Shown here: positions 12,888 through 36,595 of the stretch, piece after piece
Position numbering within the stretch: position 1 is the first letter of the stretch
Layout of the letters: every line of letters begins with the position of its first letter
Source of the DNA: Escherichia coli
GTDB lineage: Bacteria > Pseudomonadota > Gammaproteobacteria > Enterobacterales > Enterobacteriaceae
NCBI RefSeq assembly: GCF_003018235.1
Contig: NZ_CP027437.1
DNA: 64,000 bases
Reading direction: 5' to 3' (one strand)
Translations under genes and position numbers: made by a program
Notes under the pieces: model-generated
Told to the model about the DNA's origin: nothing
Seen by the model: the letters and a program-made list of their open reading frames with translations, nothing else
Databases searched by the model: none

Positions 12888-14262
12888 CAGCCACACTGTT
12901 GACGACGGACTTTATCTGTTCGTCGGTGCCTGCACGGTTTCAGCCCCCGGAAGGGCTGCGTTCGGGGCTTCACCCCGTTCCCCGGCCTCAGGGTCGCGAT
13001 GCGTTTTCTGCTGCATGACCGTTCAGAACCTCCGTTGATACTCGTCACTCATTACCGTTCGGGCCTTCGGGTGTCATGCCCTACTATGCCCTCTGCTGAC
13101 TCCTGTCCGCCGGTCAGCGCCCCTTACGGTACGCTCAGTTCTGGATACAGAACGACGGACAGGCCTCCCGGGGTAAGTTCAGCTGCCTTCACCACACACC
13201 TGTCCGATTTACCACCCCGGTTCTTGATGGTTATGGCCTTCGCAATTCTTTGCTTGCTCCGCCAACCGGGTAGGCCTCGTATCGGATTTCTGTTCGTCAG
13301 GTCATGGATTTGCTTCACGCTTCCTTCAGACCCCGCTTCACGACGACGCCCTTGCGCTTCGCTAGTCCTTCGCTACCATCAGGCTGGACAGGGGACTTTC
13401 ACCCCCGAGCTGCTGAACATGCCCGGCACACAAAGAAAGCCCCTCCGGAGAGGGGCTGGTATGCGCAATGTTCCATCATCTGCATGGTGCCGGGTGCCTC
13501 CCGGTGAGTCCGGCATCAGCATCCGAACCCGCAATATTGCCCAAATAAAGCTAAAGGATGATTGTGACCTGCTGATTTGCCCCTCCGCACAGGGGGATTC
13601 ACCATGCAGACATTTTCTTAGCAAAATCACTGCGTGCCAGGCAACTCCCAACTACATAAAATGTGGAGTTTGTGGCATTTATGCACATAACTCACAGGAA
13701 TTATCTTAAAAAAGCTGACAGGGCTTCCCCGGCAACGTAATACCATCATTCCCTGAAATGACATCCCCGTATTATCGACAGGCTCAAAAAGGAGCCAGTC
13801 ATCTGAGGATGACTGGAAAAAGGAAAGATAAAAAATTATTCATCATACAACCTTCGTTGCAAGGGAGAATCCTGCGGTGCAGCAACATACAAAAACATAA
13901 GCCAACTAACAATATGCAGGCATAGCATTTTCGGATTTTGTTATATGGCACGGCAACTGAATGCTCACCTGATATACAGTCCGGTATAAAATTGCAAAAA
14001 AAAACGCCAGTTAAGGCGGCATTTAAACAGATAACAGGATTTTTTCGTAATTTCAACAACGTCGGGGTGGCGCATCGTCAGTCCCTGTCAGGAAGTACCA
14101 GCACTCCCACCAACAATGCACCACCCCATTCAGCGTTGTAAAACACGGCACAGGAACTATCAATGTTTTCTGTTACAGTTCGGGAAAAACGATAAACACG
14201 CCACGGGCTCTTTTTGCTGTGAATTAAAAACGGTCCTGAAAGCCGGCTCATCATTTTTTACT

Positions 14263-14339
14263 GGACCGTCACCGGGGACTCGAACCCCGCACTCTCAACA
14301 TAAAAGGTTGATGCTCTTTCCTGATGAGCTAGTGACGGC
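14263..14339 (-). tRNA. phage-encoded tRNA, anticodon read as UUU (Lys-type loop CUUUUAU); identity uncertain
   Basis: 77-nt cloverleaf with 7-bp acceptor stem CCGTCAC/GTGACGG, T-arm CGGGG-TTCGAGT-CCCCG, CCA end. Confidence 0.55.
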
Positions 14340-14340
14340 A

Positions 14341-14416
14341 TGGTGGCCCTTGCTGGATTTGAACCAGCGACCTGGCGGTTATGAGCCGCTCGCTCTCACC
14401 ACTGAGCTAAAGGGCC
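14341..14416 (-). tRNA. phage-encoded tRNA with CAU anticodon, ileX/ileZ-like (tRNA-Ile2 or Met)
   Basis: 76 nt GGCCCTTTAGCTCAGTGG...CTCATAA...GGTTCAAATCC...CCACCA; close to E. coli ileX as I recall it. Confidence 0.8.
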
Positions 14417-14535
14417 GCGCGCAGAATAATAACGTTACGGAATTAATACTGCAATATCTTCAGAAGGCCTGATTAAATGCTGTTCTTCACTTGTCCACCA
14501 GTGTGTTTACTGTACTGCACCAAGTTTACAGGTAC

Positions 14536-14563
14536 AAAAAACCCGCTCAGCGGCGGGTTCTTA
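14536..14563 (-). terminator. intrinsic terminator downstream of Q (tR'-like)
   Basis: minus-strand hairpin AACCCGCCGCTGAGCGGGTT followed by TTTTTT. Confidence 0.5.
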
Positions 14564-14595
14564 AATCTTATCAACGGTAGACATACAAAGCCCAT

Positions 14596-14624
14596 CGTTG
14601 GGAAAATCTTATCCATATTTTTTG
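14596..14624 (-). promoter_or_regulatory. putative late promoter PR' (sigma70-like)
   Basis: minus-strand TTGCAT - 17 bp - TAAGAT between Q stop and the terminator. Confidence 0.35.
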
Positions 14625-14665
14625 AAAAATGCAAGCATAATGTCGTCATCTTCGGCGAAAACCAT

Positions 14666-15418
14666 TTATCTTGTCACCTTTCTCAATTGTATCTCTGCAT
14701 ATGCTTCTTCCTGCCAGCACTTTGTAACCAGTTTATCAATGACATCTGCATATCCTTTGTACCACTGATAATCCGTCAGGTCTGGTACCAGATTCTGGAC
14801 ATGATGCCGCGCCAGTGTGGTTGGTAAACGGCTAAACCGGTTTCCATTGCAACGCCCACAAATCTTATAAACCGGCGTGCCATGAAGCCGGGTTCTTTTT
14901 TCATCCAGGACAATACCTTTACCCTTACACCCTCTGCACGCTGTGCTGACTTCTCCCTTACCATGGCAATGCTGACATAGTTTCTTCACCCACTCTTCCT
15001 TGATAACAGATTCCCCGCTTCTGGAGTGTTTCACCACTTCGCGCAATACATTATGAAATCCAGTACCAGCACAATGCTCACAGCGAGCCTTACTTGCCGC
15101 AGACCTGGAATAATCAGCAAAGGCAAAATTCACAAGGTAAGGGATAATCTGTAACCGGGTTTCTTCACTCAATTTATTCAATGTCGGGTTATCCAGTGCC
15201 ATCGCGTAATTGAGCAGACCTTCAATCGCAAACTGAGGATCCTGAACGCCAACTTTTGCCAGGAATAAGGCAAAACCAAGCGGTGCTTTCGACTGCACCA
15301 TCCCCTGCGCAGCCATTACATCCGTAATTGTTAAACCACCAGAGCCTGTCGCCGGTGCGTCATCGCTCAATTTTGGAGATTTTGGGGAGTAATATTTCGG
15401 TAAGGCTTCAAGGTTCAT
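14666..15418 (-). CDS. antitermination protein Q (QuuQ-like, 250 aa)
   Basis: multiple C-x2-C zinc-binding pairs; size and position (after DUF968, before late promoter) as in Qin prophage. Confidence 0.75.
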   Translation of the reverse strand: MNLEALPKYYSPKSPKLSDDAPATGSGGLTITDVMAAQGMVQSKAPLGFALFLAKVGVQDPQFAIEGLLNYAMALDNPTLNKLSEETRLQIIPYLVNFAFADYSRSAASKARCEHCAGTGFHNVLREVVKHSRSGESVIKEEWVKKLCQHCHGKGEVSTACRGCKGKGIVLDEKRTRLHGTPVYKICGRCNGNRFSRLPTTLARHHVQNLVPDLTDYQWYKGYADVIDKLVTKCWQEEAYAEIQLRKVTR

Positions 15419-19428: not shown

Positions 19429-19661
19429 GCTGCACCTCCGAGATGCTTCATGTTTTTTCCGGAGCAAAAGGCTATAAGCGGCATACTGATGCGGTAATTA
19501 CGGCCCAGCGGTTCACAAATCACCTTCTGACATTCACGGTCAACCAGGCTAACACGTAGAACATGCCCTGCAGGCGTGGTGTACCACTGCCCAACTGTAG
19601 GAATTGATGTTTTTTTACGCTGAAGCAAACGGCAAATATTGAGGATCAACGGATTAAGCAT
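19425..19661 (-). CDS. hypothetical protein (78 aa)
   Basis: ORF between initiator and upstream gene; no recognisable motif. Confidence 0.35.
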   Translation of the reverse strand: MLNPLILNICRLLQRKKTSIPTVGQWYTTPAGHVLRVSLVDRECQKVICEPLGRNYRISMPLIAFCSGKNMKHLGGAA

Positions 19662-20490
19662 GACGATGCCCTCCGTTGATATTCAGGAGACGGTGAATAT
19701 GAAAATTAGCCTTATCCGCCAAACGAATACGTTCAGCCTGCAAGTTAAGAAGTGTTTCTACCAGAACCTGATGCGCCTGCGGATCCGAAAGAGTTACCTT
19801 GCGCAGAGCACGTAGTGCAGTTGTTACATAACTGAGTTTATGTAAGTCTTCATCATTCAGACGAGTGAGGGCTGGGACAGTAGCCATGATGGCAGCCTCC
19901 TTGATCGGTGAAATACTTCCACCACCGGAAACGCCAATTTCGCTGGTGGTGAACTGAACGGGGTTGGCGTAACCGGTGATCAAGGAAACCGGCGCATCTT
20001 TCGATGCCCCCGCCCAGCCCACCATAACTTTGATGTGAGCAAATGCGGACGATAAAAAAGACGCTGGCGCGTCATATATCGCCTTGATCAATTCCAGGAC
20101 GCCAATCCCGGCACCCGCTTTATAAGGTGCCTGAACAGTGTAACGTCCCGGAATGGCAGAATCAATGTGCTGGTGGTCCTTCACACTCAACAAAATCACG
20201 CCTGAATTTCCACAAAGGACTAAAGCACTCATGCGGGTAGTCTTTGCGAAGATAGATAACGCGCTGTGTTTCTGGCTCCCAACGAATAACATGGACATAA
20301 AGCCCTCTTCCGTCACGAAACCAGCGGTTAAGTTCCTGCACAACTCGCCCCCCACAGTCAGGTAAAGTTCTCTGTGGTTACTTACAGCCAGGTGATTTGG
20401 TAATCTGCATTCATGCCGTAACAACAGGTGTTCAGCGACGCTGACCACCAGCTGTTGCGACAAACGGTTATTTGCCGTTAAACTGTTCAT
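19654..20490 (-). CDS. hypothetical protein (278 aa)
   Basis: long coherent ORF in early-right operon; family not recognised. Confidence 0.5.
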   Translation of the reverse strand: MNSLTANNRLSQQLVVSVAEHLLLRHECRLPNHLAVSNHRELYLTVGGELCRNLTAGFVTEEGFMSMLFVGSQKHSALSIFAKTTRMSALVLCGNSGVILLSVKDHQHIDSAIPGRYTVQAPYKAGAGIGVLELIKAIYDAPASFLSSAFAHIKVMVGWAGASKDAPVSLITGYANPVQFTTSEIGVSGGGSISPIKEAAIMATVPALTRLNDEDLHKLSYVTTALRALRKVTLSDPQAHQVLVETLLNLQAERIRLADKANFHIHRLLNINGGHRHA

Positions 20491-28589: not shown

Positions 28590-29813
28590 TCAGTTTGAAT
28601 CAGAGATAGTACAATTAACAATCGATTCAACCCTCTTCCACCATGCCAGGTAAGCTTTACGCTGTTCTTCTAGATAATCGCTCTTATCATAAACTTGCCA
28701 TACCCCTGGCAGCTTATGACCAAGCATAATTTCTGCGATATGAGGCGCAGTAAGATCAGAAAAATTTGTTCGTGCTGTCCGTCTCAAGTCATGAAGAGAC
28801 CAATGAGGGAATTGATATCCTAAACGCCGCCACGCGTACTGCATTAAATTGTAAGGCAGCGACTGTAATGATGTCCTACCGACGGGTTCCCTGCTTCCTT
28901 CCTTAGTAAAAAGCATATCGGAACCGTTGTTCATAGAGATAACGTATTTTATAAGCTCTTCAACCGGTTCAATAATGGGCCGCTTTAGCGGTTTGCCTGT
29001 TATGTCCCCTGTCTTATGTCGTTCAGGTGGTACAGTCCATACCTTATTTATGAAATCAAAATCACCCACCCTAGCAGTAATTAGCTCCGAACTACGGCAA
29101 CCAAAATGCAGTAATAGTTTAATGAAGGCCCGGTATTTGGGAACCATTCTAGAGCCATCGATCGCAGCATAAAGAATTTTAATTTCATCGTGTGTCAGAA
29201 ACCGTTTCTTCTGACCTTTACGGATATCCATATCTTTACCCGTGATATCCGACAGCGGGCGAGTTTCAATAAGCTTTCTCTTATACGCCCAGACATGGGC
29301 CTGCTTTGCGTTAATTAGCAATCGGTCTGCTATTGCTGGAGTCTTAGTGCTAAGAGGCTCCAAGACTTCTAACCAATCATGCAATGTAGCTGCATCGTGA
29401 GGGATATTCCCGATTTTAGAGAACAGGTGCAGCTCAAACGAGCGGAGTATCTGTTCAGAACCCTTTTTATTTTTTACACAATATGCTTCATACCAGGCAC
29501 GGATCACAGACTCTACCGTCATGGCTTCAGTAGCTTTTCGTTTTTCAGCCTGCTTGACCAATCGTGGATTACGGTTTGACTCGAGTTCACCACGGAGACG
29601 GATAACTTCTTCTCTGGCCTCTTTTAATCCAGTTGCCGGGTAAGTTCCGATATCAAGACGCTCACCTTTCCCTGCCCATTGATAACGATATTGGAACACT
29701 ACGCGACCTTTCGGTGATACTCTGACAGACAGACCATCACGATCGGATTTAACCAAAACCTTATCACGTTCCTTTCCAACGACTGAACGCAACCACGCAT
29801 CAGACAGCGCCAT
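28590..29813 (-). CDS. tyrosine-type phage integrase (P4-like, N-terminal arm-binding domain)
   Basis: 407 aa; C-terminal catalytic region with R...H-x-x-R...Y; prophage-chromosome junction nearby. Confidence 0.9.
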   Translation of the reverse strand: MALSDAWLRSVVGKERDKVLVKSDRDGLSVRVSPKGRVVFQYRYQWAGKGERLDIGTYPATGLKEAREEVIRLRGELESNRNPRLVKQAEKRKATEAMTVESVIRAWYEAYCVKNKKGSEQILRSFELHLFSKIGNIPHDAATLHDWLEVLEPLSTKTPAIADRLLINAKQAHVWAYKRKLIETRPLSDITGKDMDIRKGQKKRFLTHDEIKILYAAIDGSRMVPKYRAFIKLLLHFGCRSSELITARVGDFDFINKVWTVPPERHKTGDITGKPLKRPIIEPVEELIKYVISMNNGSDMLFTKEGSREPVGRTSLQSLPYNLMQYAWRRLGYQFPHWSLHDLRRTARTNFSDLTAPHIAEIMLGHKLPGVWQVYDKSDYLEEQRKAYLAWWKRVESIVNCTISDSN

Positions 29814-29879: not shown

Positions 29880-30198
29880 GATTTTTGATGAAAGCAACCT
29901 GATCGATTTAAAGTTACATGAAAGAATTTTCAATTAAAGAAGCCACATAACTATATGTATTTAAATGATTTATATAGCTAGACCTCAATTAACTGAAAGG
30001 ATTTTGAAAGAGTAAAAGAGCTTTAATTTGGGATTAATTATTGGGGTGAGAAATAATGGCAAAAGTGCGGCGCTTCGCCACCTCTTGCAAATAAGGAGAC
30101 AACGTCATAATTCTTTCTTCTTGAGTAAGCGGCATCGCGCCGCGCTTGTTGAAAACGAAAAATTGCGGCTATTTTACCCATCAACGGGGGGGAGGCAA

Positions 30199-30876
30199 TC
30201 AGTGTTTACACAGGAGCTGCTCCAGTTCGTGCAACGAAGAAACGGTCCAGGTGGGCGCGATGCCTTCTGGTTGCTCGCGATTGTGCGCATTCAGCCAGCA
30301 GGTCGCAAGCCCGGCGTTGATGCCACCGAGAATATCGGACTCGGCAGTGTCGCCAACCATCAGCACGCGTGAACGGTCAGGATTGCCCGCCTGTTCCAGC
30401 GCATAATCGAAAATTTTCTTATTCGGTTTGGCAACGCCAACTTCTTCGGAAATCACCAGCAAATCGAAATAATCACGCAGGCCCGTGCGTTCCAGACGCA
30501 CTTGCTGCAAGGCGCTAAAGCCGTTGGTGATGATGCCAATTTTAGCGTTGCCACGAATGGCGTTAAGCAGAGAAACCGCGCCCGGCAGCGGCGTACAGAT
30601 TTCCGCCATCGCATTAATAAAGGCTTCGTTGAGTTTACCCGGCTCGACGTTCAGCCGTTCGGCCCAGCTCTCAAACCGCCCGTGCTGAAGCTGTAATGAA
30701 GTGATCGCGCCGTTTTGATAATCCACCCACAGTGGCTTGTTAACGGCCTGATAGTCCTGAAAATCTTCAGCGGTAAAGGTGACGCTGTAATCAAGAAACA
30801 TCCGCTGCAGGCCGGTGAATGAGTCAAAGGTAAACAGCGTTTCATCGGCATCAAAGAAAATCCAGTCCCACTTCAT
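30199..30876 (-). CDS. yjjG: pyrimidine 5'-nucleotidase YjjG (HAD family)
   Basis: 225 aa; HAD motif FFDADETL. Confidence 0.9.
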
Positions 30877-30890
30877 TATTCCACCTTGTC

Positions 30891-31337
30891 TTACATACTG
30901 ATTGGCAACGCCATGATGATGGCGTCTTCGCGACCGTCCGTGGTGGGGTAGTAATTGCGGCGAATCGTCGCCTCGTTAAAGCCTAAACTTTCGTACAGTG
31001 CAATGGCGGCAGCGTTTGAGGCACGGACTTCCAGCCATAGCGTCGCCACGCCGCGTTTTTCCAGTTCGTCGATCAGATGTTCCAGCAGCGCCCTTCCCAA
31101 TCCCTGACGCTGATAGTCAGGATCGACCGCAATATTGAACAATGTAGCTTCATCCAGCACCACTTGCGTAATCGCAAACGCCGCCATTTTGCCGTTTTGC
31201 GTTAACTGAAAGTTGAGATAACGCTCGCCCTGGTTGCTGGCAAAGGTTTTTTCACTCCACGGAAAGGCGTGGGCGCGTTGTTCAATGTGGTAAGCCGCTG
31301 GTAAATCAGTCGTTTCGAGGGAAGAAATCGTGTTCAT
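30891..31337 (-). CDS. rimI: ribosomal-protein-S18 alanine N-acetyltransferase
   Basis: 148 aa GNAT; conserved context holD-rimI. Confidence 0.9.
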
Positions 31338-31719
31338 ATGTGCAAATTTGTTGCCATAACGCGGCGCGTGCCGTTGGGTTTGCCCGTAATTCGGTGAGCG
31401 CCGGTGATGCCACCTGAGCGCCTTCCAGTGATAGCGGTTCGTCAGTACCCAACCGCCAGCTGTTGCAGCGACTGCCTTGCGGCAGCATCGCGATTTTTTC
31501 TGGCGTCAGTTGCAGCACTTGATCGGGGCTGACGGTTAATGCGCGCAGAACATCGCTCACTAAAGGATCAGTCAGGGCGGGAAGATCGTTTGCCACCATC
31601 ACCAGACGGACGTGTGCCGGGATCGCAATGGCAATCTCCCCCTGCAACGCGCCAGGGCGACGCAGCGACCACTGGGTAATGCCCAGTTGCTGTAACTGCC
31701 AGTCTCGTCGGGATGTCAT
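31306..31719 (-). CDS. holD: DNA polymerase III psi subunit
   Basis: 137 aa; overlaps rimI start. Confidence 0.9.
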   Translation of the reverse strand: MTSRRDWQLQQLGITQWSLRRPGALQGEIAIAIPAHVRLVMVANDLPALTDPLVSDVLRALTVSPDQVLQLTPEKIAMLPQGSRCNSWRLGTDEPLSLEGAQVASPALTELRANPTARAALWQQICTYEHDFFPRND

Positions 31720-31821
31720 AGCGAATCGCTCCTGTTGTCAGGGGCGCAAATATAGCAAATTCGTCGATACCGCGCCAACATATGGCTATAATCGCCGCCA
31801 GTATCAATTGAGGAGCATTCC

Positions 31822-32853
31822 ATGTCTGCATTTACCCCGGCAAGTGAAGTCTTGCTGCGTCACAGTGATGATTTCGAACAAAGCCGTATTCTTTTTGCCG
31901 GAGACTTACAGGATGACCTGCCCGCGCGTTTAGATACCGCGGCCAGCCGTGCTCATACCCAGCAATTCCACCATTGGCAGGTGTTAAGCCGCCAGATGGG
32001 GGATAACGCCCGTTTTAGTCTGGTCGCCACGGCGAATGATGTCGCAGATTGCGATACGTTGATTTACTACTGGCCGAAGAACAAACCGGAAGCCCAGTTC
32101 CAGTTGATGAATTTACTTTCTCTGCTGCCGGTGGGCACGGATATTTTTGTCGTTGGCGAGAACCGCAGCGGCGTGCGCAGCGCCGAACAGATGCTGGCAG
32201 ATTATGCGCCGTTGAATAAAGTCGACAGCGCCCGTCGCTGTGGCCTCTATTTTGGTCGTCTGGAAAAACAGCCGGTGTTTGATGCCGATAAATTCTGGGG
32301 CGAATACAGCGTCGATGGCCTGACGGTCAAAACGCTGCCGGGCGTGTTTAGCCGCGACGGTCTGGATGTCGGTAGCCAGTTGCTGCTCTCGACGTTAACT
32401 CCGCACACGAAAGGTAAAGTGCTGGATGTCGGCTGCGGCGCGGGCGTGCTTTCGGTTGCCTTTGCGCGCCATTCACCGAAAATTCGTCTCACTCTGTGCG
32501 ATGTCTCTGCGCCAGCGGTAGAAGCCAGCCGCGCAACACTTGCGGCCAACGGTGTTGAAGGTGAAGTCTTTGCCAGTAACGTCTTTTCCGAGGTGAAAGG
32601 TCGTTTTGATATGATCATCTCCAACCCGCCGTTCCACGATGGGATGCAAACCAGCCTCGATGCGGCGCAAACGCTGATTCGCGGCGCGGTGCGTCATCTT
32701 AATAGCGGCGGCGAGCTGCGAATTGTAGCGAACGCCTTCCTGCCTTATCCGGACGTGCTGGATGAGACATTTGGCTTCCACGAAGTGATCGCGCAAACCG
32801 GGCGCTTCAAGGTGTATCGCGCCATTATGACCCGCCAGGCGAAGAAAGGTTAA
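31822..32853 (+). CDS. rsmC: 16S rRNA (guanine1207-N2)-methyltransferase
   Basis: 343 aa; SAM-binding motif DVGCGAG. Confidence 0.9.
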
Positions 32854-33052
32854 GTATCTGATATCTGTCGCCGCATACCGTGTCGGATGCGGCGTACACG
32901 CCTTCTCTGACCGACAAACGAATTATCCACAATCCGCTGATGGACATTTTTCCAGCAATTACACCTCCGGCGATAATTAACTATTGACGAAAAGCTGAAA
33001 ACCACTAGAATGCGCCTCCGTGGTAGCAATTCTTTTTAAGAATTGATGGTAT

Positions 33053-33139
33053 GCGAAGGTGGCGGAATTGGTAGACGCGCTAGCTTCAGGTGTTAGTGTC
33101 CTTACGGACGTGGGGGTTCAAGTCCCCCCCCTCGCACCA
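33053..33139 (+). tRNA. leuV: tRNA-Leu (CAG)
   Basis: 87-nt GCGAAGGTGGCGGAATTGGTAGACGCG...CTCGCACCA; first of three identical copies (copy naming tentative). Confidence 0.9.
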
Positions 33140-33167
33140 AAAACCACGTTGATATTGCTCGCACTGG

Positions 33168-33254
33168 GCGAAGGTGGCGGAATTGGTAGACGCGCTAGCT
33201 TCAGGTGTTAGTGTCCTTACGGACGTGGGGGTTCAAGTCCCCCCCCTCGCACCA
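33168..33254 (+). tRNA. leuP: tRNA-Leu (CAG)
   Basis: identical second copy. Confidence 0.9.
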
Positions 33255-33288
33255 AACGAGGCGATATCAAAAAAAGTAAGATGACTGT

Positions 33289-33375
33289 GCGAAGGTGGCG
33301 GAATTGGTAGACGCGCTAGCTTCAGGTGTTAGTGTCCTTACGGACGTGGGGGTTCAAGTCCCCCCCCTCGCACCA
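33289..33375 (+). tRNA. leuQ: tRNA-Leu (CAG)
   Basis: identical third copy. Confidence 0.9.
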
Positions 33376-33413
33376 ATTATCTTTACTTCCTTTCTTGTTT
33401 CTTCCCTGATTTT

Positions 33414-33650
33414 TCATCCCTGATTCAAATTCATTATCATCAGCATGATGCCAGCAATAAGCGCCAGGCACGATGGCAGCAAAACGTAATGCCGCAACTG
33501 TTTGTGATACAGCATCACCGGCGTCAATATTAATCCCATCAGAATGACAATCCGCCACTGATCCGGCGATAAATCCGCATACATCAGCCCTGCAATCAGC
33601 AATCCCGGCAGCAACACTCCCCAGCCACTGCCCAGCGTACGTTGCAACAT
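33414..33650 (-). CDS. yjjZ: small inner-membrane protein YjjZ (DUF1435)
   Basis: 78 aa from ATG 33650; hydrophobic. Confidence 0.55.
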   Translation of the reverse strand: MLQRTLGSGWGVLLPGLLIAGLMYADLSPDQWRIVILMGLILTPVMLYHKQLRHYVLLPSCLALIAGIMLMIMNLNQG

Positions 33651-33790
33651 GGTTTCATCTCTTTCATTGATAATGATAACTAATATCATATGATAATTTT
33701 TATCATTTGCAAGCCAGAGAAATCCCTTGCTATCGGGTAAACCTATCGCTAGGATTAGCAATCATTATCATTTAGATTACTATCCCGATT

Positions 33791-34579
33791 ATGGCCTATC
33801 GTTCCGCACCGCTCTATGAAGATGTTATCTGGCGAACGCATCTCCAGCCGCAGGATGCTGGGCTTGCACAAGCCATACGGGCGACGATCGCCGAACATCG
33901 TGAACATTTGCTCGAGTTTATCCGCCTGGATGAACCCGCTCCGCTTAACGCCATGACGCTGGCGCAATGGTCATCAACGAATGCGCTAAGTTCTCTACTG
34001 GCGGTCTATTCCGATCATATCTATCGCAACCAACCAACGATGATCCGCGAGAACAAACCGCTGATCTCACTATGGGCGCAATGGTATATCGGCCTGATGG
34101 TGCCACCATTAATGTTGGCGCTGCTGACGCAGGAAAAAGCATTAGATGTGTCGCCGGAACATTTCCACGTTGAGTTTCACGAAACCGGACGCGCCGCCTG
34201 TTTCTGGGTCGATGTGTGTGAAGATAAAAACGCAACACTACATTCGCCGCAGCAGCGAATGGAAACGTTAATCAGTCAGGCGCTGGTTCCGGTAGTGCAG
34301 GCATTAGAAGCAACGGGAGAGATCAACGGCAAACTTATCTGGAGCAATACCGGTTATTTGATCAACTGGTATCTGACTGAGATGAAACAGCTGCTTGGCG
34401 AGGCGACGGTTGAATCGCTGCGCCATGCCCTCTTTTTTGAGAAAATGCTCACGAACGGTGAAGATAATCCACTCTGGCGTACCGTGGTACTGCGCGACGG
34501 CCTGCTGGTGCGCCGCACTTGCTGCCAGCGTTATCGCTTACCGGATGTGCAGCAATGTGGCGATTGTACGCTGAAATGA
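33791..34579 (+). CDS. fhuF: ferric-siderophore reductase FhuF
   Basis: 262 aa; C-terminal C-C-x10-C-x2-C motif. Confidence 0.9.
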   Translation: MAYRSAPLYEDVIWRTHLQPQDAGLAQAIRATIAEHREHLLEFIRLDEPAPLNAMTLAQWSSTNALSSLLAVYSDHIYRNQPTMIRENKPLISLWAQWYIGLMVPPLMLALLTQEKALDVSPEHFHVEFHETGRAACFWVDVCEDKNATLHSPQQRMETLISQALVPVVQALEATGEINGKLIWSNTGYLINWYLTEMKQLLGEATVESLRHALFFEKMLTNGEDNPLWRTVVLRDGLLVRRTCCQRYRLPDVQQCGDCTLK

Positions 34580-34616
34580 AAGCACTGCCGGGGAAGTAAA
34601 CCCGGCATCATGCGGA

Positions 34617-35294
34617 TTAATAGGGATGCAACACATTACTTGCTTCGCAATGCCGCATACATAACAGAATATCTGCGGCCTCCAACAACCCTGCATCAGA
34701 ACTGACGCCCAGTTTCGACATCACATTAAATTTATGTGCACGGATCGTTTTGATATTGCGTTTAAGCTGCTCGGCAATTTGTGTCATTGAGTAGCCACGC
34801 GACATAAAGCGCAATATTTCTCTCTCCGTCGGGCTTAGCGTTCGGCTTTGATTAATGTACCACTGATTGTTCAGTCGGTCGGTCGCCTGACGTACACCAT
34901 TTAATGACAAAAAGAGTTCCTGATGAAAAATCTCCAGCGTTGACGCTTTACTTAATACACCGTCCAACGGTGATGGCGACAATGAACCAATCAGCCGAGC
35001 TTCAATATCATCATCCGCAATAACTAAACGCCGGGTACGCGGAAACTTAATCGCCAGTTCAGTCAGGCAAGATAATCCCTCTCTGCGCTCACTTCTCATG
35101 GCAGAAAAAGAAAAAATGACCGCCGCAAACGAGATCCGCGACATGGCATCCTGAAATGACTCCTGACTGGTATAGGTATGGAGCTTATAAGGGTTACCCG
35201 CAAACTTTCTGAATAAACTCTCAATACCGATACTACTCATGACGCATTTTTCTATGAGTGCGACATTTCTCTTCTTAATTCGGCTGTGTTCCAT
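34617..35294 (-). CDS. bglJ: LuxR-family transcriptional regulator BglJ
   Basis: 225 aa; C-terminal LuxR HTH; overlaps yjjQ. Confidence 0.85.
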
Positions 35295-35977
35295 TCTGCG
35301 GCATCTCCATAAACAGAAGGCAAGTTAAGTTCTCTTGCACCCTGCGCGCTATTTATCCATGCATACATTTCAGCGTTGCTGTGAATTGCCAGTCGACGCA
35401 TCGCACTGTTTTTTTGGGCGCTGATAGTTTTATTACTTTTCTTAAGCAATGAAGCTATCTGGTTGATGCCCCATCCTTTACCTAATAGCCGCAGTACCTT
35501 GCGCTCTGAAAGAGTGAGAATGACGGAGCGATAGCTAAAATCATGAGTTTCAGTCATTGCCGGAGAGGTCAGCATGGCGCTGATACGCTCTGCGTGCGTA
35601 TTGCCGGAACGTACGGTCTTGACCAGATTCTCAATGGGTTCAACATCAGACAATAACGTCGCCGTAGGGCACATAAGCAGTTCTACTGCCTGGGAATACC
35701 AGGAGCGTGACACCATGAAAACCCAGTGAATTTCCCGATATTGTGAGATTAAAGAATAATAATGTTCACAAACAGAACGTGGATCTTCACTTTCACCGGC
35801 TAAATCAGCAATGACTAATCCGGAACGACGTAATTGTAATAAGGTAAGGTCCTCCGCAGAGGCGCTGGATATTATTTCATATTCAGGGAAGTGAGTCCTC
35901 ATGACCTCTTTTAACCCTGCTTGCATAACAGGTATTTTACTGATAACAATTCCATTTTTGCAGCATCCTGGCAACAT
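35252..35977 (-). CDS. yjjQ: LuxR-family transcriptional regulator YjjQ
   Basis: 241 aa; C-terminal LuxR HTH. Confidence 0.85.
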
Positions 35978-36595
35978 ATTTCCTCCACATCCACTGTCTA
36001 AAAATTATGATGGTTTATTCAGGATATTCATTCCTTAAATGTTTCCAGCAAATTAATAGATTAAGCGAATAAATTATCCTTAGCATTCACTTTCATATCA
36101 GCATACTCCTGCTGCACAACAACTCCACTGCATGTGTCAGAAGGTTAGCATCAAATGATAACCTGGTGAAATAGCCTGGAGACATTTAAAATATCTACAT
36201 TAAGTTGTTAGAAATACTTAATGAAAAACAGAATTCTCATTCATTTAATTTATAATTAACTGATATCCCTTCCCGCAGAATGCAAAATCACACAATCAAT
36301 ATTTATTCAATAAAATCTGATAGTTTTAACTTGTAAAAATTAAAAAACGCGCCCAGTTATCTTTTATCCTGATTCGTAAAGGCTAAACAATAAATTCATT
36401 ATAGTGATAATATTCATGTGATAATTTGTTTGCGACGAGAGATAATTCGCTTTTTATCACCGAGCTTCTCCCGATAACCAGGATTAATCAGCGCAATTTT
36501 GATCTTAACCTACCGCAAAACAACCGTGCTTCATGATACAAATGGATTCTCATTATCTGAACAATACGCAGCACGTCTATGACAAAGGGCGAGTT

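Follow-up and report, generated by a model that had tools for sequence, protein, structure and literature searches.

What does a prophage use a tRNA gene with a UUU anticodon for, at a site where Stx phages hold arginine tRNAs, and how would such a gene be expressed? The question is raised by a 64,000-nucleotide (nt) stretch of Escherichia coli DNA (contig NZ_CP027437.1 of assembly GCF_003018235.1), hereafter called the window, to which all positions refer. A preliminary description of this DNA had placed two phage-encoded tRNAs at 14263-14416, downstream of a late terminator; the first was thought to be ileX-like, with a CAU anticodon, and the identity of the second, with a UUU anticodon, was left uncertain. 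We find that the second gene very probably descends from the argN gene of Stx phages. Our best explanation of the locus as a whole, to which we give a probability of about 0.5, is a cassette of the Stx-phage kind that would be transcribed from its own promoter and whose argN-derived tRNA would decode lysine codons while evading tRNA nucleases.

Two tRNA genes downstream of Q

ARAGORN found five tRNA genes in the window, exactly two of them inside the interval of interest and both on the minus strand. In transcribed order, these are a gene with anticodon CAU (14341-14416), a gap of 2 nt, and a gene with anticodon UUU, which ARAGORN labels tRNA-Lys(ttt) (14262-14338). In a local search with the Rfam tRNA model RF00005 (gathering score, 29), the CAU gene scored 71.8 bits (E = 1.6e-15) and the UUU gene 53.2 bits (E = 2.2e-10); chance is ruled out for both calls. 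A permissive Rfam search of 13640-14700 revealed no further degenerate tRNA genes near the pair. The interval first proposed did contain two tRNA genes, but its start was one base off (14263 for 14262) and the minus strand was not stated. The anticodon loop CUUUUAU, with UUU as read, and the unusual D-loop, which is the 9-nt AUCAGGAAA, were described correctly, and ARAGORN, the check that had been suggested, neither assigned a different anticodon nor called the first gene a pseudogene.

The placement of two phage-borne tRNAs downstream of Q and of a tR'-like terminator was confirmed by ARAGORN, Pfam, and folding. The Q antiterminator gene (14666-15418, minus strand) encodes 250 amino acids (aa) that match the Pfam family PF03589 (Antiterm; E = 1.3e-53), and its homologue in phage PhiR47_1 is annotated as antitermination protein Q. 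About 100 nt downstream of Q, on the same strand as the tRNAs, lies a tR'-like intrinsic terminator (14562-14533, minus strand) that consists of the hairpin AAGAACCCGC-CGCUGA-GCGGGUUUUU (approximately 14562-14537) followed by a U-run. The hairpin folds with a free energy of -13.9 kcal/mol (z = -3.0), and 0 of 200 shuffled sequences folded as well.

ARAGORN gives the CAU gene the name tRNA-Met, which it prints for any CAT anticodon and which several GenBank phage records also state. An elongator or initiator tRNA-Met is nonetheless highly improbable. The gene is 97.4% identical to copies in Stx phages and prophages and 86.8% identical to K-12 ileX, whereas its identity to Met tRNAs is 65.8% (metT) and 63.2% (initiator Met), both Met references having been entered by hand; the ileX-like character proposed earlier is therefore upheld. 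Its acceptor stem, GGCCCUU.../...AAGGGCC, has the pairs C4-G69 and C5-G68, which E. coli TilS requires (PMC1635315) and which are absent in tRNA-Met, and its paired G1-C72 leaves no unpaired 1-72 end as in the initiator. In addition, PGAP labels identical copies tRNA-Ile. Compared with other prophage copies, the gene shows a lineage-specific compensatory swap from A31-U39 to G31-C39. By its sequence, then, the CAU gene is a tRNA-Ile2 gene of the ileZ/ileX type. TilS would convert C34 of its product to lysidine, and the tRNA would then read AUA. Codons were counted in small, crudely called sets of open reading frames (ORFs), with prophage ORFs compared to flanking host ORFs; ATA amounted to 6.6 to 13.8 per 1000 codons in the prophage versus 3.3 in the host (2- to 4-fold), which fits the classical rare-codon role for a tRNA-Ile2.

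Ancestry and distribution of the UUU gene

Like the ileZ-argN-argO cluster of 933W-type Stx phages, which lies between Q/pR'/tR' and stx (as shown in an O157 Stx2c prophage), the two genes are placed behind Q and the late terminator. The likeness extends to the first gene, with the 97.4% identity given above, to the second gene, which is a homologue of argN (76.6 to 79.2%), and to promoter-like hexamers upstream. Unlike the 933W-type cluster, the cassette of the window has UUU instead of UCG or UCU as its second anticodon and no third gene (argO); it is accompanied by another Q type (250 aa, PF03589), and no stx is present, the slot being filled by a small RNA (sRNA) homologue and a group II intron. 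The key clue to the second gene was the earlier statement that, in Stx phages, arginine tRNAs are found in this slot: the UUU gene is their full-length homologue.

Indeed, the identity of the UUU gene falls off in a graded series. It reaches 100% with the copies of strains ECOR29 and 95-3322, 90.9% with the common UUU type (loop CCUUUAA, with C33), 88.3% and 85.7% with UCU genes of the same slot, and 76.6 to 79.2%, over the full length, with the UCG argN copies of O157 and Stx phages. Matches at 77.9% in the phage collection are argN of Stx phages. The gene is also closer to K-12 argU (62.3%) than to K-12 lysT (55.3%); its body is unrelated to that of the host tRNA-Lys, and a comparison with the lysT family did not reveal homology to bacterial or phage tRNA-Lys. 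All genes of this second slot share C1-G72, U73, and the 9-nt D-loop AUC(A/G)GGA(A/U)A with A20, and among 120 IMG/VR contigs sampled, the family shows only three anticodons, namely, UCG (~94), UUU (~21), and UCU (5). Covariation supports the cloverleaf of the family, with 97.4% of the cells paired, five pairs changed on both sides, and a score that 0 of 500 shuffles reached.

The UUU gene reads, on the minus strand, CCGUCAC-UA-GCUC-AUCAGGAAA-GAGC-A-UCAAC-CUUUUAU-GUUGA in its 5' half, followed by GAGUG-CGGGG-UUCGAGU-CCCCG-GUGACGG-U-CCA in its 3' half. The canonical cloverleaf is its minimum-free-energy fold, and all 21 of the 21 stem pairs are Watson-Crick pairs. At pair 4-69, a lineage-specific change from C4-G69 to U4-A69 has taken place, and the intermediate U4.G69 occurs in a UCU relative. 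With a UUU anticodon that lacks C35, the gene is to be regarded as a descendant of the argN lineage and not as a tRNA-Arg, and we consider this identity and its descent from Stx-phage argN very probable on the grounds of the sequence comparisons above. The simplest anticodon history would lead from UCG through UCU to UUU, the replacement of C35 by U being the step that changed the identity from Arg to Lys. Some of the IMG/VR UCU relatives have an anticodon stem (UCAAC/GUUGA) identical to that of the UUU gene. We had considered the change from G30-C40 to A30-U40, which loses the CNG motifs of P2 Old, as part of the anticodon switch; this idea was dropped, as the UCU relatives already carry the stem. 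As a possible link between the two UUU variants, a CUUUUAA loop was looked for in IMG/VR and not found.

A separate case was seen in one lineage (three IMG/VR contigs), in which a thrU-like gene in the third slot has changed from UGU to UUU beside a degenerate UUU gene in the second slot. Within these cassettes, UUU has here arisen a second time, independently.

The change proposed for the second slot is like the alloacceptor anticodon shifts, or tRNA remolding, of mitochondria and eukaryotic nuclear genomes, in that a syntenic gene with an anticodon point mutation is closer to another acceptor family, and it is unlike them in its location in a temperate-phage cassette. For phages, no account of a shift of this kind turned up in our limited full-text search. 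Saks and colleagues are said to have reported in 1998 that a point mutation of the central anticodon base recruited an E. coli tRNA-Arg(UCU) to Thr codons.

The UUU gene is itself not new, since public records already call it tRNA-Lys. A BLAST search with the 77-nt gene gave full-length matches in 2,044 of 5,426 complete E. coli genomes. Sorted by identity, the E. coli matches comprised 12 records at 99% or more, 7 at 95 to 99%, and 321 at 90 to 95%, and the rest, at lower identity, were annotated tRNA-Arg. The variant of the window is thus rare (19 of 20,395 E. coli records and a single IMG/VR contig), and no isolated phage in the phage collection carries it at 95% identity or more. Of the complete E. 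coli genomes, ~6% carry the sister type with C33, which isolated phages (PhiR47_1 and Evi, for example) have as well, and the UUU clade is present in many different Q and flank contexts. Neither UUU variant occurs in the GTDB species-representative genomes (100,044 species).

The sister type belongs to Ile-Lys(UUU, CCUUUAA)-Thr(UGU)-Gly(UCC) arrays, such as those of PhiR47_1 and strain AR_0119, whose UUU gene PGAP annotates as tRNA-Lys. It shares with the gene of the window, besides the 90.9% identity, the slot, the D-loop, and the anticodon stem. The gene of the window differs from it by U33 and U38 (C33 and A38 in the arrays), U4-A69, and a fully paired T-stem; it has no thrU and glyT copies beside it, and its type is ~17 times rarer (19 versus ~321 E. 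coli records; 1 versus >115 IMG/VR contigs). The Thr(UGU) and Gly(UCC) genes of these common arrays are base-for-base K-12 thrU and glyT (at two loci and in 85 IMG/VR arrays) and look like captures from the host thrU-tyrU-glyT operon with tyrU lost. The genomes with the exact cassette of the window came mostly from rodents and other animals (kangaroo rat, laboratory and wild mice, dog) and in few cases from humans, which hints at a restricted host-lineage distribution.

Charging and possible roles of the UUU tRNA

The reading that we place first, although with odds somewhat short of even, is that the UUU tRNA acts as a nuclease-insensitive decoder of lysine codons. The tRNA would read AAA and AAG, and it would be charged mainly by lysyl-tRNA synthetase (LysRS), less efficiently than the host tRNA-Lys, since its UUU anticodon is the chief determinant of this enzyme. 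The anticodon is the major LysRS determinant, and the E. coli enzyme also uses the discriminator A73, other bases at this position lowering activity (PMC9976931); the tRNA has U34-U35-U36 but carries U73 in place of A73.

The selective value of such a tRNA would be to keep lysine decoding going where tRNA-Lys is cut by PARIS AriB, by P2 Old (at its lysine site), and possibly by PrrC. AriB needs the sequence U36-A-A-U-C|A41 together with U16, and the substitutions U39A, A41C, and U16C abolish or impair cleavage (PMC12409363). At these positions, the host tRNA-Lys has U36-A-A-U-C-A41 with U16 and U17, whereas the UUU tRNA has U36-A-U-G-U-U41 with C16 and A17 and thus lacks all of the AriB recognition features mapped outside the anticodon. 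P2 Old cuts tRNA-Lys once, after C40, in CNG motifs (PMC12445682), and the UUU tRNA has U40 instead of C40. Because every position known to be read outside the anticodon differs, these nucleases would not be expected to recognize it. Both PARIS (PMC9122126) and P2 Old (PMC12445682) act on lambda, and phage tRNA-Lys rescues infection from PrrC (PMC11555353) and reportedly from PARIS (PMC11464382). The gene resembles phage T5's tRNA-Lys(UUU) in being phage encoded and in differing from the host tRNA at the AriB-read positions 16, 39, and 41, C16 being the same substitution in both.

Several observations weigh against this reading. The T5 tRNA-Lys, which is validated against PARIS, keeps a true Lys body with A73, a GGG/CCC acceptor stem, and U31-A39, whereas the gene of the window has an Arg-type body with C1-G72, U73, and C31-G39. 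U73 is unfavorable for LysRS, and C31-G39, where the host tRNA-Lys has A31-U39, is the worst pair in E. coli tRNA-Lys transcripts, with a ~100-fold decrease in LysRS kcat/Km (PMC1483225). This body makes the charging of the UUU tRNA uncertain. Furthermore, the positions to which the nucleases would be blind were inherited from the Arg-type ancestor and are not new, A30-U40 having preceded the anticodon switch. In the sister UUU type, C33 replaces the near-universal U33, nucleotide diversity is 2 to 4 times that of the neighboring tRNAs (0.025 versus 0.006 to 0.013), and about one-third of the copies are visibly damaged (U8C, D-stem deletion) and missed by PGAP, which are signs of relaxed constraint in that type. 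Finally, the Thr and Gly companions of the sister type had been candidates for resistant variants as well, and they were dropped: since they do not differ from host thrU and glyT, they are no nuclease-resistant variants, and they speak for supply rather than resistance.

The same unfavorable features, U73 and C31-G39 as well as the C33, the raised diversity, and the many damaged copies of the common sister type, would be expected if the UUU gene were a dead or near-dead relic of a redundant phage tRNA-Arg, inactivated by the C35-to-U change and hitchhiking in a cassette that is kept for its Ile2 gene. C35, A20, and A/G73 are determinants of arginyl-tRNA synthetase (ArgRS) in E. coli, A20 being the main one (PMC9976931), so the loss of C35 takes away a main ArgRS determinant. 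In several arrays, the second slot adjoined argO(UCU), and its gene may hence have been redundant; moreover, Lys codons do not count among the rare ones of E. coli, and their enrichment in the prophage is only modest. Against a relic stand the canonical U33 and the flawless cloverleaf of the variant of the window, which is better paired than the presumably functional O157 argN, and the completed two-step compensatory change at pair 4-69. Either tRNA of the cassette shows zero differences from the ECOR29 and 95-3322 copies, while the flanks diverge by 3.4 to 5.3%; for the UUU gene alone, the absence of any substitution in 77 nt against this flank divergence has a P of ~0.015 to 0.07. UUU is also the sole non-Arg anticodon in the 120-contig sample of the family, and its clade has spread to many Q and flank contexts and to ~6% of complete E. 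coli genomes. On balance, we regard a relic as somewhat unlikely and rank it just behind the nuclease-insensitive Lys decoder.

Another function that we weighed is plain codon supply, in which an extra tRNA-Lys would serve Lys-rich, AAG-rich phage genes in the late burst as Ile2 does for AUA. Lys codons amount to 54 to 60 per 1000 in prophage ORFs versus 40 in host ORFs (1.4- to 1.5-fold), with AAG enriched ~2-fold, and the exact thrU and glyT copies in the sister arrays fit dosage supplementation, as does the turning of a thrU copy into UUU in one lineage. On the other hand, a single 2.3-kb cluster of K-12 already holds at least five genes for tRNA-Lys(UUU), and AAA is one of the major codons; one more, poorly chargeable gene would add little. 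AGA plus AGG are 4 to 6 times more frequent in prophage ORFs than in host ORFs, yet the prophage has no Arg tRNA: it kept this excess while giving up the tRNA, and codon supply therefore does not explain the change from Arg to Lys. We consider this role improbable.

Since the D-loop retains A20, the main ArgRS determinant, a dual-identity or decoy RNA was also conceivable. Partial charging with Arg would then place Arg at Lys codons, or the RNA would act outside translation as a competitive binder of tRNA-Lys nucleases. McClain and colleagues reportedly observed, in 1990, that tRNA-Arg amber suppressors with U35 inserted a mixture of Arg and Lys. The authors of the AriB study mention that viral tRNAs, when overexpressed, might act by competition (PMC12409363). 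However, the Arg determinants C35 and A/G73 are both absent, and AriB recognition needs positions that the UUU tRNA lacks, so that it would be a poor decoy; both forms of this idea appear very improbable.

Self-immunity against a tRNA nuclease encoded by the prophage itself was considered and dropped. Among the ten prophage ORFs tested, PADLOC gave no defense matches beyond the helix-turn-helix region of a repressor-like ORF.

The swap at 31-39 in the Ile2 gene of the cassette also removes a UAAU(36-39) motif. Cleavage of tRNA-Ile2 by AriB has not been reported, and a connection of this loss with nucleases is suggestive only.

Taken one step further, the nuclease-insensitive Lys decoder would mean that a temperate lambdoid phage made a counter-defense tRNA by a single anticodon change in its own tRNA-Arg, a natural case of alloacceptor recruitment; this full chain we rate as rather doubtful. 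A limited literature search gave no account of the descent from argN, of a cassette promoter, or of a link of this gene to tRNA-Lys nucleases.

Expression of the cassette and its prophage context

From the position of the tRNAs downstream of the tR'-like terminator, the preliminary description had concluded that their expression depends on Q. Between the terminator and the first tRNA, however, we found a predicted promoter (14454-14426, minus strand) with the -35 hexamer TTGCAG (14454-14449), a 17-nt spacer, and the -10 hexamer TATTAT (14431-14426), which is separated from the 5' end of the CAU tRNA by the GC-rich 9 nt TCTGCGCGC. A simple promoter scan missed this element because its -35 hexamer matches at only 3 of 6 positions. 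The arrangement TTGNNN-17(16)-TATTAT-9 nt recurs across 38 distinct upstream 60-mers drawn from E. coli prophages, isolated phages, and IMG/VR contigs, one of which has TATCAT. The hexamers are kept in families with an unrelated spacer (for example, AGCTAAACTGGCATAAG), the -35 element varying in its last three bases, and at some loci the tR' hairpin directly abuts the -35 hexamer. The element is also present in classical Stx2 prophages, such as that of O157 strain 7.1_Anguil. We thus think it likely that the cassette has its own promoter of the sigma-70 type, with a predicted start ~2 to 3 nt before the mature tRNA 5' end.

A predicted promoter that recurs between tR' and the tRNAs means that a position downstream of tR' does not imply dependence on Q. 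Of the earlier claim, what remains is that read-through under Q can add to expression; Q is probably not required. A candidate for the late promoter pR' lies just past the Q stop codon (14634-14606, minus strand), with TTGCAT (14634-14629), a 17-nt spacer, and TAAGAT (14611-14606). Its hexamers are weak matches, and PhiR47_1 has the element unchanged, whereas substitutions are present in the neighboring 3' end of Q; we infer from these features its assignment as pR' (TTGCAT-17-TAAGAT). In the mechanism that we propose, the cassette would be transcribed from its own conserved sigma-70 promoter, Q-antiterminated transcripts from pR' would read through tR' during lytic growth and add to this expression, and RNase P together with 3' trimming would release two tRNAs whose genes encode CCA. 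The first terminator-like hairpin with a U-run downstream (14024-14002, minus strand), found by a terminator scan, folds weakly (-6.9 kcal/mol, z = -1.9) and may mark the end of the transcript.

Between the cassette and this hairpin lies a 58-codon ORF (14078-14254, minus strand) that begins 8 nt past the UUU tRNA. Its DNA is conserved in the ECOR29 and 95-3322 prophages, where the ORF is unannotated, and it has no Pfam match. Two further ORFs of this region were set aside: a plus-strand ORF of 118 aa that runs over both tRNAs (14116-14472) is spurious, and a small minus-strand ORF (14473-14649) has no Pfam match and is unannotated in relatives.

A lambdoid prophage occupies approximately 1-29800 of the window, with its integrase gene at 28590-29813. 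The host part at 30000-36000 is 99.6% identical to E. coli genomes and corresponds to the rsmC-fhuF-yjjG region; three tandem tRNA-Leu(CAG) genes on the plus strand (33053-33375) are taken as a host cluster of the leuQPV type and are unrelated to the prophage cassette. On the minus strand, Q is preceded by genes for RusA, KilA-N, and DUF968 proteins, and the tRNAs are followed by an STnc100 sRNA homologue, a group II intron, a nanS-like esterase gene, and lysis genes. The segment from the end of Q through the tR'-like hairpin (14720-14529) is almost unchanged in PhiR47_1, which has the same Q type, and homology to this phage ends just past the hairpin. The tRNA block and ~370 nt downstream instead match, at 95 to 97% identity, the prophages of ECOR29, 95-3322, and a set of strains associated mostly with rodents; there, the block follows a DNA methyltransferase gene. 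Together, these boundaries mark the locus as a mosaic in which a Q module is joined to a tRNA module. E. coli O158:H23 (CFIAFB20140388) has this prophage backbone at an identical chromosomal site (yjjG side), there with another Q, a methyltransferase gene, and the classical Ile-Arg-Arg set. The segment of Q, tRNAs, and morons is swapped between prophages as a module. Stx2h-converting prophages (two strains) are ~93% identical across ~60% of the first 25 kb of the window.

The group II intron (9609-13347, minus strand) was recognized by Rfam domains D1 to D4 at 13062-13347 and the catalytic domain at 9609-9681, and it occupies the slot where Stx phages have stx. Its reverse transcriptase/maturase ORF has been broken into two pieces, RVT_1 (12012-12896) and GIIM (9705-10148), by the insertion of an IS21-family element on the plus strand (10201-12002) that carries an rve transposase fragment (10201-11013) and IstB (11220-12002). 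Between the tRNA cassette and the intron lies the homologue of the enterobacterial STnc100 sRNA family (13426-13637, minus strand), a full-length match of 134 bits versus a gathering score of 47, with a strong terminator hairpin at its end. Adjacent matches to isrK (64 bits) and C4 antisense RNA (82 bits) at 19942-20130 on the minus strand lie at or within the 5' part of an ORF of the Ash family (19654-20490). In arrangement, they are similar to the c4 control module of P1 and the isrK control module of Gifsy-1, and the long Ash-family ORF call probably overruns these RNA genes.

Phage tRNAs have recently been recast from helpers in codon usage to countermeasures against tRNA-cutting immunity, on evidence mostly from T5 and other virulent phages. 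A working UUU tRNA would mean that temperate lambdoid phages, which include relatives of Stx phages and which PARIS and P2 Old target, use the same trick, and that redirecting an unrelated tRNA through its anticodon is a cheap way to a nuclease-blind tRNA. The label "tRNA-Lys" in hundreds of E. coli genomes would then conceal an Arg-derived molecule whose charging cannot be taken for granted. If the gene is a relic, the locus would be an ordinary Stx-type cassette with one decayed member, and it would counsel caution on prophage tRNA annotations. The cassette promoter is relevant to the biology of Stx phages generally: its presence in Stx2 prophages suggests that ileZ-argN-argO may be transcribed without Q in uninduced lysogens.

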